A stretch of 61,969 nt of DNA, filler included, from Candidatus Woesearchaeota archaeon (GTDB lineage Archaea > Nanobdellota > Nanobdellia > Woesearchaeales > BM511): the NCBI GenBank assembly GCA_023266675.1. It is 5 parts of 5 records of this genome, joined end to end, with 100 filler letters (N's around TTAATTAATTAA, not from the genome) between each part and the next. Parts side by side here need not be neighbours in the genome. Positions count along the whole stretch, not along the records: positions 25,554 to 53,982 come from JAHFPP010000008.1; 4 more parts are not named here. One strand, given 5' to 3'. The notes beneath the pieces are model-generated. The model did not search any database. It was not told where the DNA came from and worked only from the letters and a program-made list of their open reading frames with translations. Position numbers and translations under genes: made by a program. The number at the start of each line of letters is the position of its first letter. Position 1 is the stretch's first letter. Shown here piece after piece: positions 32,066 to 38,767 of the stretch.

Positions 32066-32091
32066 TATATTTTTACAATTAAAGAAAATAG

Positions 32092-32326
32092 CGCCGCGGC
32101 TGGGACTTCCACCAAACCTTTTAAGAAAAGGTTTAACAAAACAGTTCGGACTATTTCAAAAAAGAAATAGTCCTTAGCCTCGAGCGTCAACGGACGAAAC
32201 GGTTGTTTGAACCCAGAAGGCAGTTAAGCCAGCGAGGTGTCAAAAACTTATTTTTGAGCACGCAAAAAATTTAAAAAATTTTTAAGCGTTTCAGTTCGCC
32301 GTCATACCGACTTAGACGACCGCGGC
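32092..32326 (-). tRNA. Class II (Ser-type body) tRNA with GAA at 34-36; introns at 37/38 (~32238-32288) and 59/60 (32106-32205)
   Basis: Acceptor GCCGCGG/CCGCGGC-G73, D stem GTC/GAC, anticodon arm GCGAA-CTGAAA^C-CTCGC, V arm GGC-TTAACT-GCC, T stem CTGGG/CCCAG. The anticodon-intron boundary is ambiguous by about 1 nt. Confidence 0.82.
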
Positions 32327-32336
32327 ATCATTGCGA

Positions 32337-32522
32337 CACAAATTTTATATACTTTGACAACATTATTAGTTATCAGAGGTTTCAGTTCGTTGCAGTACCG
32401 ATTTAGATGACTGCATTTTTTCTTTTTTATTTATTTCAGAATTAACGATTTATATACCTCACGCGTCCATGTCCTGTGTCCAGTGAAGCGTTTTATCGTC
32501 GACAAATAAGTGTCCAGTGGAT
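32337..32522 (-). repeat. Upstream module shared with 15221-15400
   Basis: Same two TATA blocks and TGTCCAGTG repeats. Confidence 0.85.
32374..32414 (-). pseudogene. Degenerate intron-less copy of the 5' half of the adjacent tRNA
   Basis: CAGAGGTTTCAGTTCGTTGCAGTACCGATTTAGATGACTGC resembles the spliced form CAGCGAGG|TTTCAGTTCGCCGTCATACCGACTTAGACGACCGC. Confidence 0.75.
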
Positions 32523-32610: not shown

Positions 32611-34092
32611 ATGACAAATCATCAAGCTGATAGTGAAATGTACGGCGGGAAAGCTGCTAGTTTAATTGCCCAGTATGAAGCTGGAAACACTGATTTTCTT
32701 TTCCCTTTCACATTAATTGACCCTGATAAAGAAAAACCGACTTTTGATTTCGAAGGCTTGCAGATTGTAAGAGGTTCTGCTGCTGGCGACGAAAAAGGAC
32801 TGGTTGATGTCATAAAAACAATTCAAAATGTATCATCCAAAGATTTGAATTGTGAGATAGATATTGATTTACCAAGAAGAGAAAATTGGAGGTCTAATTA
32901 TATTAATAGTATGATGGATTTTCATAAAATAAGATCTGTACGTAATTCTATGAGTTATATAACTTATACTGATGATGAGATGAGAAGATTATTGATTGCA
33001 CTTGGAAAAGGTACTCTTTCACCAATAGATGAAATCATAAAAGATTCTAAAAGAGATGAAGTTGTATCCTTTGCAAAATGGGAAGGCAACATAGACTATA
33101 ATGGCGTTAAAAGTGTGATTATATCCCCTCAAAACATAGATGAAAGAAGAGGGCAGATAATTGAACACCCAAATATGGAAGGACACTACATAATTAATGT
33201 TGTTAATGCGGTTGTTAAAGACACAAGTGATATGAGAAGAGACCGAATTTATATGGATGAGATATTAGCGGATTCTTCAGGGAATATAGTTAAATTTGGA
33301 ATAAATAGTGTTGGAGAAAAGACATCTCCAAAAGAAGTTAAAGCAATAGTTGAGATGAAAAGAAGAGCCAAGGAGGTTGGGTTTATTTCTGGCTCTAAAA
33401 GTTCACAGGTTGAATTTGGTTTCTTTAATAAGGCACAAAAGTTAGAATCAAAAAAATATCAATACGCTGCAAAACCAAAATCACCGATAATATTTTATCA
33501 AGAGAGGGAATTTAGACCGTTTGACTTTGATGACCAATTTAATCCACAAAAATATGTATTCAACAGATTTGGAAGAATACCGCAGGAAGGTTTAGAATTA
33601 AGAGTTGTAGTAGTAGAAGAGAGTATGGATAGAAGTTTATTAAATGATGGTGTTCCTTCAATATACACTCCAGGTGCATCAAAAGGTATAGTTGGTGAAT
33701 CTTATCTTGATGTCGGACTCGCTTTAATGGCTGATTTAAATTTTAGACCAGAGAATATGCACGCTTATTTAGTGCCGATGAATACAAAGAATGGAAGCTC
33801 GCTTGAACATGGAAATTTTAGGTGGGCATCAAAAGCGCCAATTTCGTTATTAAAATTAAGGATAGGAGACCGTTCTTACTCTGATGATTACAGAACCGGA
33901 GAAATGATAATGTTAACTCCTGATTTAAGGATATCTAATTCCTCTACAAGTTCACAAATAAGTCCCCATGATGCACTTAGCTTGGCGTTAGTTCAGCTAA
34001 CTGATTCTCATAATGAGTTAAAAAAGAGCTTATCAAGAATGGGTGATACTCCTCTTGATGATTTGTATTTGCCGTCTCCTGACAAAATATAA
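32611..34092 (+). CDS. Hypothetical protein, weak PPDK/PEP-synthase ATP-grasp-like motifs
   Basis: YGGKAASL, IVRGSAAGDE, QVEFG, FYQER. Confidence 0.55.
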   Translation: MTNHQADSEMYGGKAASLIAQYEAGNTDFLFPFTLIDPDKEKPTFDFEGLQIVRGSAAGDEKGLVDVIKTIQNVSSKDLNCEIDIDLPRRENWRSNYINSMMDFHKIRSVRNSMSYITYTDDEMRRLLIALGKGTLSPIDEIIKDSKRDEVVSFAKWEGNIDYNGVKSVIISPQNIDERRGQIIEHPNMEGHYIINVVNAVVKDTSDMRRDRIYMDEILADSSGNIVKFGINSVGEKTSPKEVKAIVEMKRRAKEVGFISGSKSSQVEFGFFNKAQKLESKKYQYAAKPKSPIIFYQEREFRPFDFDDQFNPQKYVFNRFGRIPQEGLELRVVVVEESMDRSLLNDGVPSIYTPGASKGIVGESYLDVGLALMADLNFRPENMHAYLVPMNTKNGSSLEHGNFRWASKAPISLLKLRIGDRSYSDDYRTGEMIMLTPDLRISNSSTSSQISPHDALSLALVQLTDSHNELKKSLSRMGDTPLDDLYLPSPDKI

Positions 34093-34162
34093 AAAAGAAG
34101 TCTAAGGATTTTCTAAGTTGTTTCAGTAATTAAGTTATAACATAAAATAAATTATATAACTC

Positions 34163-34786
34163 CTACTTCATCTGGTTCTTTTTCTTGACTCGCTTTGTTC
34201 GAAACAATGCTTCTCTTTCTGCTTCGTCAAGTCTGAACTGGATGAATGCTTTTTGTTTTGCAAGCATTGGCATGACTTTGAATTCAAGCGCGTTTACCCG
34301 TCTTTTTGTTTTTTCTATTTCAATAAGAAGTTTTTTCATTGCGGTCTCAACTTCAGCTGCTCTGACAACTAGTTTTGTAAGCTGCTCATAAGCTTCAACA
34401 GATTCATCAATCATGTTTGATGTTGTTATTACTGAGTATCCTTTGTGGTCAAAAGTTTTTTTGATGTCTTCAGATTTGATTGTAGGAACTGTGACTCCCA
34501 TTATATTTTTTGTTTTGACTTCAATTGGCGGCCTGTTTTGTATTGACAAAGCGAGTGATTTTATTTTCATGTCTGTTTCAATAACCCTTGCCATGTTGAA
34601 CTTCTGCGTCGCTTTGATGTACGCCTCAGTAAGTTCTACACGTATTGTCTTTGCTTCTTTTAGTATTTCAAAAAATGCAAGTATCAAACCGTCTCTTTTT
34701 TTCTTTAGTAAATTATGGCCAGCTTTAGCTAGCTTAATCCTGTTCTTTAGCTTCATCAATTCGCTTCTAGTTGGTTTAATATTCAT
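34163..34786 (-). CDS. atpD: A/V-type ATP synthase subunit D
   Basis: PTRSEL, LLKKKRDGL, NIMGV, EIEKTKRRVNALE. Confidence 0.96.
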   Translation of the reverse strand: MNIKPTRSELMKLKNRIKLAKAGHNLLKKKRDGLILAFFEILKEAKTIRVELTEAYIKATQKFNMARVIETDMKIKSLALSIQNRPPIEVKTKNIMGVTVPTIKSEDIKKTFDHKGYSVITTSNMIDESVEAYEQLTKLVVRAAEVETAMKKLLIEIEKTKRRVNALEFKVMPMLAKQKAFIQFRLDEAEREALFRTKRVKKKNQMK

Positions 34787-34830
34787 TGTTATTACCTTTT
34801 TTAGGGCTATTCACTTTTATGAATAGACCA

Positions 34831-34866
34831 TTGCGCGTCAACCGAGCGTAACCGGTTGGTGATATT
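34831..34866. repeat. 36-bp hairpin element, copy 1, between 30-bp direct repeats (34758-34787, 34867-34896)
   Basis: TTGCGCGTCAACCGAGCGTAACCGGTTGGTGATATT; 35/36 identical to 38392-38427. Confidence 0.9.
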
Positions 34867-34911
34867 AATTCGCTTCTAGTTGGTTTTATGTTCATTTTGA
34901 TAACTCTTGTT

Positions 34912-35038
34912 TAAATTACAAGCATCGGTCCTCGCGGTTAATTTGATATCGCAAGTTCTGCGTCTCCGTAGGAGCCATCCCTCCGCGACGAACTTAATGT
35001 ATTTCTTAAGTGCTTGCGGATTTGATGCTTGTAATTTA
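34912..35038. mobile_element. MITE-like element with 15-bp perfect terminal inverted repeats
   Basis: TAAATTACAAGCATC (34912-34926) / GATGCTTGTAATTTA (35024-35038), GC-richer structured interior. Confidence 0.55.
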
Positions 35039-35043
35039 TGTAA

Positions 35044-36522
35044 CTATTTTTTCTTTTTAACGTCGTGTTTTTCAGCTTTCTTTTCTGCTTTGTGAGATTC
35101 TTTCGCTTCAGGTTTTTTTTCGTCAGCGTCATCTACTTTCTTTGCTGTCATTGAAGTTTCTTTTCCGTAATACTGCTCTTTAAGCGCTGGCGAGAGTCTT
35201 GATAAGTCTTTTGCAGGTATTGATTTAAACATGTCCCATGAAAGGTCAAGTGTTTGCTCAATTGTCCTGTTCTCATTCTTTCTTTGTGTGACAAATCTTT
35301 TCTCAAATTCTTCTGCGAATTTTAAAAGTCTCTTGTCTTTGTCTGAAAGCGCTTCTTCTCCAACGATTGCAACAAGGCCACGAAGGTCTCTTCCTTCTGC
35401 GTAGTTTGCGTACAGCTGGTCTGAAACGTTTTTGTGGTCGTCTCTTGTTTTTCCTTTTCCTACTCCAAGGTTCATAAGCCTTGACAATGATGGAAGGATA
35501 TCAACTGGAGGGTAAATGTTTTTTCTGTGAAGTTCCCTTGAGAGAACTATCTGGCCTTCAGTGATGTATCCTGTTAGGTCTGGAATCGGGTGTGTTATGT
35601 CGTCTCCAACCATTGTCAATATGGGGATTTGTGTTATTGAGCCTTTTTTGCCTTTTATCATTCCAGCTCTTTCATAAATCTGCGCTAGGTCAGTGTACAT
35701 GTATCCTGGGTATCCTCTTCGTCCTGGCACTTCCTCTCTTGCTGCTCCAATCTCCCGGAGTGATTCGCAGTAGTTTGATAGGTCTGTCATTATGACTAAC
35801 ACGTGCATGTCGTTTTCGTATGCTAGGTACTCTGCTGCTGTGAGTGCCATTCTTGGTGTGACTAGTCTTTCAACTGCTGGGTCGTCTGCAAGGTTCAAAA
35901 ACACCACTGATCTTTCGAGTGCTCCTGTTCTTTCAAAGTCTGCGATGAAGTATTGTGCTTCTTCGTTTGTGATTCCCATTGCTGCGAAGACTACGACGAA
36001 TTTTTCGCCCTGTCCTACAACTGTTGCCTGTCTAGCTATCTGCAAAGCTATCTCGTTGTGCGGAAGACCGGACCCCGAGAATATTGGAAGTTTTTGTCCT
36101 CTGACTAGTGTGTTTGTTGCGTCTATTGTTGAGATTCCTGTCTGGATGAAGTCTGCTGGCTGCAGTCGCTGGTACGGGTTTATTGCTGCGCCAAGGATGT
36201 CTCGTCTGTCGTCGCTTATGATTTCTGGTCCGCCGTCAATTGGTGAGCCTGCGCCGTTTAGTATTCTTCCAAGCATGTCTTTTGATACTGGTAGCTTGAT
36301 GTTTTCGCCTAGAAACGTTAGTCTTGCTTCTTTGTCGATTCCTGATGTTCCTTCAAAAACCTGTACGACAACTATTTTGTCTGATGTGTCTAGCACCTGT
36401 CCTTTTTTTATTGTGCCGTCTGATAATGCTATTTTTACAAGGTCTCCGTATCCTACTGGGTCTGTTTTTTCTACAAAGACTAGTGGGCCTGCGACCCTTG
36501 TGATTGTTTTATATTCCTTCAT
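35044..36522 (-). CDS. atpB: A/V-type ATP synthase subunit B
   Basis: [53 protein letters not shown]; Lys/Glu-rich tail. Confidence 0.98.
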
Positions 36523-36583
36523 AAAAAACACCCTGTGTTTTGTTGAAGCTCAAAAAACTTGTTTTTTGTTTGTTTCATTTTAT

Positions 36584-38320
36584 TCACTCCAATTTTTCTA
36601 CTTCAGCTTCCATTTCTTTTTGGACGCTTAAAAGTTTTTTCTCGTAATCTCTTTCGAATTTGACTTCGCCGATTTTTTCTTTTGATTCCATTTCAACTAT
36701 TCTTGCAACTGGCACTCCATTTTCAAGAGCTGTTACGGCAAGCTTGTTAAAATGCATTATTGTCTTCATAATCATGTATGATTTTTTTAGTTCGCAGAAT
36801 GTGTCAACTTCGTGAAACGCGTTTTGCTGCAGTAAGAATTCTCTTATCAGTCTTGCTGTTTCAAGTGTTATCTGCTGTTTGTCGGGTAGTGCGTCTGACC
36901 CTACAAGCTGCACGATTTCAAGGAGTTTTTCTTCGTCTTGTAAAAGTCCCATCATTGTGTTTACCATTTCTCTCCAGTCTGATGCGACGTTTGCAGAGAA
37001 CCATGGTTCAAGCTGGTCTTGGTAAAGGCTGTATGATGTCAGCCAGTTTATTGACGGAAAGTGTCGTCGCTGAGCGAGTTTTGCGTCCAGTGCCCAGAAT
37101 GTTTTTATGACTCTTAGCGTGTTTTGTGTTACTGGTTCTGAGAAGTCTCCACCAGCAGGGCTTACTGCACCTATTACTGTTACACTACCTTCTTTTTTTG
37201 TTCCGATAGGTATTACTCTTCCTGCTCGCTCATAGAATTCAGCAATTTTTGTTGATAAGTATGCTGGGTATCCTTCTTCACCTGGCATCTCCTCAAGTCG
37301 TGAAGAAATTTCTCTCATTGCTTCTGCCCATCTTGATGTTGAGTCTGCCATCAAAGCCACTGAGTATCCCATGTCTCGGTAGTATTCTGCTATCGTGATT
37401 CCTGTGTATACTGATGCTTCTCTTGCTGCTACTGGCATGTTTGATGTGTTTGCGATTAAAACTGTTCTATTCATCAATGGTTTTCCTGATTTTGGATCTT
37501 TTAGGTGAGGGAACTCTGTTAATACTTCTGTCATCTCGTTTCCTCGCTCACCACATCCAATATATACTATGATGTCTGCGTCTGACCATTTTGCTAGCTG
37601 CTGCTGTGATACTGTTTTTCCTGCTCCAAATGGTCCTGGAATTGCTGCGCATCCTCCTTTTGCAAGCGGGAATAGTACGTCAAAGACTCTTTGGCCTGTG
37701 ATTAGCGGCATCTCTGGCGCTAGTTTCTTGAATGATGGTCGTGGTTTTCTTACTGACCATTTGTGTGCGAGTTTTAGTTCGGTTTTTCCGTCAACCATTC
37801 CTATTACTTCGTCGATGTTGTATTTTCCTGATGATATCTCAGTTATTACTCCGTCAATACGTGGCGGAACCATTATTTTGTGGAAGACTCCGTCTGTTTC
37901 TTCTACTTCGCCGATGAATTCTCCTGATTTTATTTTGTCTCCTTTCTTGACAGTTGCTTTAAAGTCCCATTTCTTTTTATGGTCTAGGCCCGGTACGTCT
38001 ACTCCTCGTAGGATGAAGTTTCCCATTTTCTCTGCAAGTATTGGGAGCGGTCGCTGGATTCCGTCGTAAATTGATGTTAAGAGTCCTGGTCCTAGTTCTA
38101 CTGAGAGTGATTCTCCTGTGTTTAAAACTGGCTCGCCAGGTTTTAGTCCTGATGTGTCTTCGTATACCTGGATTATGACTTTTTCGTTGTCTATCTGGAT
38201 GACTTCACCCATAAGTTTTTCTTTGCCGACACGTACAACGTCGTACATTCTTGCGTCGAGACCTATTGCCACTACAACTGGTCCTGCGATTCTAAAAAGT
38301 TTTCCTTCTTTGCTTGTCAT
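36584..38320 (-). CDS. atpA: A/V-type ATP synthase subunit A (no intein)
   Basis: [39 protein letters not shown]. Confidence 0.98.
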
Positions 38321-38391
38321 TTTTTCATTCACCTTTGAGTTATTCGTTAATATGATTTCTAGACAATATGCGTTTTTGCATATTGTCTGAT

Positions 38392-38427
38392 TTGCGCGTC
38401 AACCGAGCGTAACCGGTTGTTGATATT
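38392..38427. repeat. 36-bp hairpin element, copy 2, between perfect 32-bp direct repeats (38327-38358, 38425-38456)
   Basis: ATTCACCTTTGAGTTATTCGTTAATATGATTT duplicated; second hairpin AGACAATATGC/GCATATTGTCT. Confidence 0.9.
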
Positions 38428-38458
38428 CACCTTTGAGTTATTCGTTAATATGATTTTT

Positions 38459-38767
38459 TTATTTTTTTGCGAGGATATCTACGCCTATTGCTTTGATTAT
38501 CATTCGCCTGATGTTTTCCTGCTCTGCTGTTTCAGATAAGACTATGCAGACTGGTTTTACTGAGTCTTCAAGTTTTAGTCTTGTTCTTTCATGTAAATAT
38601 TTTACTGCTTTGTTGTTCATGACTATTATCCCGTCAACTTTCTCGTCTAGTATTTTCTTTATTTCTTTTTCTGCGGAGTTCTCATTGACTTCAATAATAT
38701 CATTTACTCCTGCTAGCTTGAATCCTAGTGTAAATTCCTCTTCTCCAAAAATTATGAAGCGTGACAT
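38459..38767 (-). CDS. atpF: A/V-type ATP synthase subunit F
   Basis: GEEEFTLGFKLAGV, KAIGVDI; operon position. Confidence 0.93.
   Translation of the reverse strand: MSRFIIFGEEEFTLGFKLAGVNDIIEVNENSAEKEIKKILDEKVDGIIVMNNKAVKYLHERTRLKLEDSVKPVCIVLSETAEQENIRRMIIKAIGVDILAKK

Follow-up and report, generated by a model that had tools for sequence, protein, structure and literature searches.

A small hairpin-forming element probably inserted with a long target duplication at the start of atpD in a Woesearchaeota archaeon

Why does an archaeal ATP synthase gene, atpD, carry its first codons twice, once at the gene itself and once upstream of a short hairpin-forming sequence? The locus lies in the window, the whole stretch of DNA analysed here (61,969 nt, filler included), of which positions 25554-53982 correspond to one contig of 28,429 nt (C33). 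The genome, G000, is a Woesearchaeota-like metagenome-assembled genome of 1.22 Mb in 83 contigs with 95.86% completeness, and the sole sequence run matched to the stretch is a groundwater metagenome. The genes atpF (38459-38767), atpA (36584-38332), atpB (35044-36531) and atpD (34163-34786) are all located on the minus strand. The ORF call gave an intact atpD encoding the A/V-type ATPase subunit D of 207 aa. Its closest named relatives are found in Candidatus Woesearchaeota metagenome-assembled genomes at 60-62% identity, and the closest relative used for comparison, G001, belongs to a sister genus and has an AtpD 80% identical to that of G000.

A repeat search aligned positions 34755-34802 with 34864-34911 as a direct repeat of 48 nt with 81% identity and a spacing of 109 nt. 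The core of the repeat spans 32 nt from the ATG and is identical at 29 of 32 positions between two copies on the minus strand. The functional copy R2 (34755-34786) encodes the N-terminus MNIKPTRSEL, which matches AtpD of relatives, whereas the displaced upstream copy R1 (34864-34895; ATG + 10 codons + 2 nt) opens an upstream ORF (uORF) of 39 codons (34776-34895, minus strand). This uORF reads through the element between the repeats and stops 11 nt into atpD in a different frame. Both the MNIKPTRSEL-coding repeats 109 bp apart and the 39-aa ORF through the hairpin element had been reported in a preliminary description of this DNA, and our searches confirmed them. The same description counted two synonymous differences, AAC/AAT and ATA/ATT; these are correct, but a third, TTA/TTG, had been overlooked, and it is synonymous as well. 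The 16 nt preceding the two ATGs match at just 10 positions. In a whole-genome search, the 32-nt atpD repeat matched only its partner, as did the corresponding repeat at atpA.

The sequence between the two copies is an element of 77 nt (34787-34863, minus strand), delimited by covariance model, repeats and fold. It consists of hairpin H1 (34839-34858), a linker, hairpin H2 (34804-34829, with the arms 34804-34813 and 34820-34829) and a 17-nt tail; both hairpins lie on the minus strand and were recovered by repeat search and fold. The tail brings an AGGT Shine-Dalgarno-like motif right before the functional atpD ATG. The element contains no ORF apart from the incidental uORF, and the repeat search revealed no terminal inverted repeats at its ends, listing the internal hairpin only. 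Searching G000 with the atpD spacer showed that the first 33 nt of the element recur upstream of atpA (C33:12839-12874), with additional copies on C58, C17 and C55. In an alignment of 14 copies, H1 is conserved, with a compensatory change from C-G to T-A in two members, and H2 is variable in sequence with its pairing kept, showing double changes in four of the five predicted pairs. The structure of the covariance model was set by hand and not taken from RNAalifold, which recovered just five H2 pairs because two H1 subfamilies align out of register. The model detected 21 copies in G000 at E ≤ 0.01 (14 seeds and 7 new ones), seven copies in G001, and weak single matches in 6 of 39 further relatives. 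The atpD copy, itself a seed, was matched at C33:9244-9304 (window 34797-34857) with 59.4 bits. Some copies are longer and continue with a T-run and a third hairpin module, H3, for which an nhmmer search returned 26 copies. The modules are shuffled among copies; those at atpD and atpA have H1 in common but not H2. A viral source was searched for with two degenerate element motifs, which gave no match among viral contigs.

The copy at atpA is a sister element of 66 nt (38359-38424, minus strand), flanked by an upstream copy (38425-38456, minus strand) and a functional copy carrying the atpA start (38327-38358, minus strand). These two repeats comprise the 5' UTR, a Shine-Dalgarno GGTG and the GTG start plus AAT; they are identical at 32 of 32 positions, 26 of which are non-coding. 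The first 33 nt of the sister element are identical to the atpD copy at 32 positions, followed by a different H2, and the BLAST match between the two loci (36 nt, 97%) extends 3 nt into the repeats. From the decoy GTG runs a uORF of 23 codons (38359-38430, minus strand), whose stop is formed by the last three bases of the element.

The same layout was found throughout the genome. Scanning for direct repeats of at least 18 nt with a spacing of 45-260 nt, followed by inspection, revealed at least 11 loci in G000 where family modules are bounded by duplications of 17-46 nt of gene or tRNA ends. At atpD the repeat of 32 nt duplicates the gene start, and at atpA the perfect repeat of 32 nt duplicates UTR and gene start. 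Gene starts are also affected at C82:3325, where a perfect 24-nt repeat (24/24) covers both the Shine-Dalgarno motif and the ATG of a small gene that follows L44e, and at C47:2226/2330, where 43 nt cover the ATG and 14 codons. Duplicated 3' ends of genes are found at C58:480 (39 nt, the last 9 codons and the stop), C66:10264 (46 nt) and C1:11865 (29 nt). The repeat at C11:27605 is intergenic (25 nt, perfect, 25/25). The tRNA-associated repeats adjoin a tRNA-Ser at C12:1095 (22 nt), or cover a tRNA-Ser 3' end at C52:17374 (21 nt) and the tRNA-His 5' end at C52:402 (23 nt); additional perfect repeats of tRNA ends, 17-27 nt long, occur on C30, C49 and at C52:791. A flanking direct repeat with a score of at least 12 was present at 9 of the 26 H3 copies (one of them a tandem array) versus 4 of 300 random positions, and this low background excludes a chance origin of the atpD repeat. 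In all inspected H3-type cases the working gene end lies on the hairpin/T-run side and the spare copy on the H3 side, an orientation that could be explained by selection on transcription. The idea that an insertion left the atpD start intact through its duplication is borne out by the complete atpD ORF and by the membership of the insert in a repeat family. The further claim that the insertion rebuilds the 5' end of atpD specifically did not hold, as the same footprint is generic to many gene and tRNA ends.

Comparison with relatives bears on the direction of the event, and the atpB-atpD spacers had been proposed as a check from the outset. The spacer in G001 is about 60 nt long as judged by eye, with no model match on that contig, and no element was seen in the atpB-atpD spacers of 8 other relatives inspected. 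The atpF-atpA spacer of G001 is element-free and 45 nt long; when the element and one repeat are subtracted from the G000 spacer, 28 nt are left. In addition, the gene pair at C47 is contiguous in 5/5 relatives. We infer from these comparisons an insertion rather than a deletion, at the coarse resolution given by relatives that belong to other genera. No empty site from the same species was found, the best AtpD identity being 62% both in the metagenome and in genome contigs.

The preliminary description had named a misassembled strain chimera at the repeat as the finding that would overturn it. In such a chimera, the assembler would have placed two alleles of the atpD start around a repeat. 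Such an artefact might be suspected in a metagenome-assembled genome of about 6x depth, where the differences are of the kind that separates strains. However, the same sample yielded a 6178-nt Logan contig, produced by another assembler, that has 0 differences over 34300-38356, and the same architecture recurs at more than 10 loci. These Logan data are contigs of possibly the source sample rather than independent reads. No variant letters, indels, joints or second haplotype are listed at the atpD or atpA insert among the Logan contigs. All three variable sites lie within 31 nt of the element junction, on both sides, so that the haplotypes would be linked to the element, assuming assembly with 31-letter words. 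We therefore regard a chimera as extremely improbable. At atpA, the Logan contigs end exactly at the perfect 32-nt repeat, as expected of short-word assembly. A 126-nt contig with the atpA element has a depth of 3.8, versus 6.41 and 6.62 on its flanks; considering this depth and length, the drop was not counted as polymorphism.

Based on these observations, we propose that a small non-autonomous element was inserted into atpD with a long target duplication, which we consider quite probable from the sequence comparisons. A family element would have inserted in the first codons of atpD at the DNA level, using breaks that a putative trans-acting activity had introduced with a stagger of about 20-45 nt, and would have duplicated the first 32 nt of the gene. 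The downstream copy, behind the 17-nt tail with its AGGT motif, would remain the working start. The upstream copy would keep the old atpB-atpD spacer and thus become a decoy start, opening the 39-codon uORF that ends at the atpD start region, where re-initiation may occur after uORF termination. The same family appears to have done likewise at atpA and at about a dozen further gene or tRNA ends.

The uORF and hairpins could instead constitute an evolved regulatory leader specific to atpD, a switch of translation coupled to the uORF or controlled by hairpins. The uORF stop indeed overlaps the atpD start region, and the 171-nt region folds into two hairpins, but the z of this fold is only -1.71, a level matched by 12 of 200 shuffles. 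The arrangement is absent in G001 and was not seen in the other spacers inspected, and the same element is also found in tRNAs and at 3' ends. Moreover, the shared hairpin is read in one frame at atpD and in another at atpA, and hence the uORF peptide is not conserved. A dedicated leader is thus very unlikely, and we interpret the atpD uORF as a by-product of the insertion.

Some members of the family reside within tRNA genes, two in G000 and at least one in G001. The tRNA-His gene on C52 has a canonical 82-nt intron called by ARAGORN, which carries H1-H2; an HMM built from four copies found this non-seed intron with E=1.3e-4. A full-length member (H1-H2-T-run-H3, 100 nt; 32106-32205, minus strand), identified by tRNA calls and covariance model, forms a T-loop intervening sequence in a tRNA gene (32091-32326, minus strand, ARAGORN) that contains at least two intervening sequences, the other being 51 nt in the anticodon loop. 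No tRNA was called from the unspliced sequence of this gene, whereas deletion of the 100 nt yielded a tRNA with a perfect 7-bp acceptor stem. A T-loop copy in G001 behaves in the same way, its tRNA becoming recognisable after removal of the element. Three contig ends break within a family element adjoining tRNA sequence. Testing of 22 model matches in G000 gave recognisable tRNAs after deletion in two cases, leaving 20 outside, by an ARAGORN test that would miss tRNAs with three or more introns; a family made up of tRNA introns only was rejected on this basis. The tRNA at 32091-32326 has a long variable arm and is labelled Val-GAC by ARAGORN, its identity being uncertain. About 75 nt upstream of it (around 32360-32395), a diverged copy of the 5' part of this tRNA gene is followed by a TATA-like box. 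ARAGORN called only 28 tRNA genes in the 95.86%-complete genome, 10 with introns; long or multiple introns probably conceal many others in G000. At G000:C52:380-1150, the tRNA-His has family elements on both sides; a second copy of its first 18 nt lies upstream, and downstream there are three occurrences of its last ~20 nt, separated by elements. These flanks look as if the site had been hit repeatedly or one unit had been amplified.

The genuine tRNA intervening sequences in the family, together with two EndA paralogues in the genome, would fit a regulated step in which the element and one repeat are removed, either from RNA as a bulge-helix-bulge (BHB) intron or from DNA by recombination between the repeats. 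Both levels of removal had been suggested in the preliminary description as ways to restore atpD. However, no strict BHB motif was found at atpD, atpA or C64, with the tRNA-His intron recovered as a control. Relaxed motifs numbered 3 at atpD (shuffle mean 2.44), 0 at atpA (1.13) and 0 at C64 (3.17). At the DNA level, the Logan contigs contain no excised allele, skipping joint or alternative contig at atpD or atpA. From a metatranscriptome of the same sample, a single partial contig was recovered, which was unrelated and did not cover the atpD locus. Unlike archaeal BHB introns, the insert at atpD needs no removal, the gene being intact as it stands; removal is needed just in the tRNA at 32091-32326 and in tRNA-His. 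A removal step at atpD is thus highly improbable.

The differences between the two atpD copies, described earlier as synonymous, raise a more serious alternative to simple duplication. All three differing codons at atpD are synonymous, and the other coding repeat pairs gave six synonymous and no non-synonymous codons at C47 (including Arg CGT/AGG), two and none at C1 (GTT/GTA and CGT/AGG), one and none at C58, and one and two at C66. Over the five pairs, 13 of 15 differing codons are therefore synonymous and two non-synonymous. At the nucleotide level 15 of 18 differences are synonymous versus about 39% estimated under neutral decay of a spare copy, in a tally that is partly post hoc and uses repeat limits set by similarity. 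As read from the aligned copies, the 13 versus 2 tally seems to fit neutral decay poorly. DGR-like adenine mutagenesis was rejected by eye, the copy differences being of mixed types.

The element may have been brought in by an integrase-type event or homology-facilitated illegitimate recombination, together with the re-coded atpD start of a related lineage. In that case R2, including its Shine-Dalgarno motif, would be of foreign origin, and the native start would be the displaced R1. A precedent for a substitute gene end is known from prophage e14 and phage 21, which supply a re-coded end for the icd gene of E. coli. As in that case, the functional and displaced gene ends around the insert, where they differ, do so mainly synonymously; e14 and phage 21, however, are integrase-driven, tens of kilobases long and have one fixed target, whereas the element here is tiny, hits many targets and leaves several perfect repeats. 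Gene-end replacement would account for the purely synonymous changes in the atpD repeat next to the 10 of 16 matches upstream of it, and for the overall excess of synonymous codons. At C47, the start of the displaced copy still overlaps the stop of the upstream gene, as in the native arrangement, and the working copy comes with a GGTGA of its own. At C1, the spare 3' end, not translatable in place, keeps RVRSKD* with its re-coded codons. On the other hand, six repeat pairs are perfect, among them the largely non-coding ones at atpA (32/32) and C11 (25/25), which argues for simple duplication at least in the young events. A separate donor would be needed per locus, the two tyrosine recombinases of the genome are located elsewhere, and both C47 copies carry derived synonymous states relative to G001. 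Two ordinary processes may produce the same pattern: R1 may have recombined with alleles of other strains that lack the element, or selection may have removed those variants of the spare copy that gene conversion could transfer to the working copy. We consider replacement distinctly unlikely and favour insertion with duplication of the target.

The enzyme behind the proposed insertion was searched for in the 95.86%-complete assembly, with the transposase search covering the DDE_Tnp_1, TnpB and Y1_Tnp families. Neither these nor Cas1 gave a match, which in such an assembly is not proof of absence. Phage_integrase matches identified two tyrosine recombinases, on C57 and C73, at none of these inserts. 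The two EndA paralogues matched tRNA_int_endo with 99.4 and 96.1 bits; the catalytic-domain genes lie at C81:3172-3432 and C26:24739-24999 and encode 211 and 208 aa. Two separate splicing-endonuclease genes are a feature of lineages with broad-specificity enzymes. The sole reverse transcriptase is a full-length Drt2-like protein (G000:C15:377-1657, minus strand; NF041746, 315 bits, below the cut-off of 390), and nothing was found linking it to the element. Downstream of its gene lie about 370 nt of non-coding sequence with an unusually high GC content, and this sequence could be the template RNA of the enzyme. To our knowledge, a Drt2-type system would be unusual in a DPANN archaeon.

Small mobile hairpins are known from yeast mitochondria, in the form of GC-rich clusters and 'byp' elements. 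As with those, small hairpin inserts here occur in a compact AT-rich genome, coding regions included, and the genes survive. The yeast elements are tolerated by translational bypass or in-frame reading, whereas here tolerance appears to come from duplication of the gene end. Programmed bypass differs further in that atpD has its own start and an intact frame, with no stop after R1. Similar to MITEs and REP/REPIN sequences, the family is short, non-coding, multi-copy, hairpin-forming and presumably trans-dependent. Unlike MITEs, it has no terminal inverted repeats, and its flanking duplication is 17-46 nt rather than short and fixed; unlike both MITEs and REP/REPIN, no cognate transposase or RAYT was found in the searches described above.

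Insertion with long target duplication has been described for restriction-modification genes of bacteria, with kilobase cargo and repeats of 30 to more than 400 bp (PMC2853133). According to the screening results of that study (Furuta, Abe and Kobayashi 2010), no archaeal case survived, and the mechanism was given as unknown. As described there, the two systems are alike in their long, variable, locus-specific target duplications, in an insert without a mobility gene, and in repeats that often overlap gene ends or tRNA genes. The cargo differs, being here a multi-copy, non-coding hairpin repeat of 50-110 nt; the atp inserts are hairpins of 66-77 nt and not a restriction-modification unit. Intron transposition among tRNAs has been described in Thermoproteales (Fujishima et al. 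2010, as summarised in citing work). In line with that summary, one family is found here in different tRNAs and partly at non-canonical positions, occupying the T-loop in both G000 and G001 and the anticodon loop of tRNA-His. Unlike the introns so summarised, most copies here (20 of 22 tested) lie outside recognisable tRNAs, and the gene-end copies are bounded by long direct repeats and carry no BHB motif. In full-text literature searches we encountered no account of such elements from DPANN archaea, and the atpD insert belongs to an apparently undescribed class of tiny mobile hairpin repeats with long target duplications.

A model of tRNA disruption by an integrating element has been presented for Caldiarchaeum (PMC3293823), and according to a 2026 preprint, none of the tested routes accounts for the arrival of archaeal tRNA introns (bioRxiv 10.64898/2026.10.13.758758). 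Tentatively, these elements could be a DNA-level vehicle for archaeal tRNA introns, tolerated in tRNA loops, where they are spliced, and at gene boundaries, where a duplicated or re-coded end makes them harmless; we regard this as possible though rather doubtful. If it were true, a duplication of 20-45 nt or a re-coded replacement would render a hit at a gene end harmless, and the synonymous-only divergence of spare ends would mean that elements travel between lineages with substitute gene ends. One family includes tRNA introns as well as insertions that look fresh and have left a readable footprint, the perfect 32-nt duplication, and with such a footprint the chemistry of insertion can be looked for. 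The family also illustrates how mobile DNA may be tolerated in an ultra-compact DPANN genome: as the element duplicates the gene end that it hits, essential operons for ATP synthase and ribosomal proteins, and tRNAs, would survive. For annotation, such inserts generate decoy starts, uORFs and spare gene ends, and mask tRNA genes.

Several further observations concern the family and its surroundings. Tandem arrays of two to three element units with a period of 135-141 nt occur at C62:15828-16256 and C44:21846-22090; in these arrays the H3 end abuts the H1 start, the order expected from copies of a circular form. A family element is located upstream of a Holliday-junction-resolvase-like gene in both G000 (C8:3231-3389) and G001 (C5:1299-1335), where the copies adjoin repeated CACTGGAC motifs and would represent an old, orthologous copy. 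There are 60-80 occurrences of a distinct repeat of about 40-100 nt, consisting of a T-rich run and then a GACCTATAATAATAT-like motif, in the spaces between small genes on the G000 contigs C3, C68, C74 and C10. An Rfam search of the window from 34000 to 36000 returned nothing for the atpD insert or for a second insert nearby; a snoRNA match within atpD was dismissed as chance (E=4.4, 20.5 bits versus a gathering score of 44). This second insert, of 127 nt (34912-35038), lies between the atpB stop and R1, outside the duplication, and occupies the remainder of the enlarged atpB-atpD spacer. It is structured, with a perfect 15-bp closing stem, and the fold of the whole 281-nt spacer has a z of -4.42, with 0 of 200 shuffles as good. 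A single homologue was located at G000:C55:11711-11904; the closing stem of this homologue covaries, and a family element without target duplication interrupts it in a hairpin loop.
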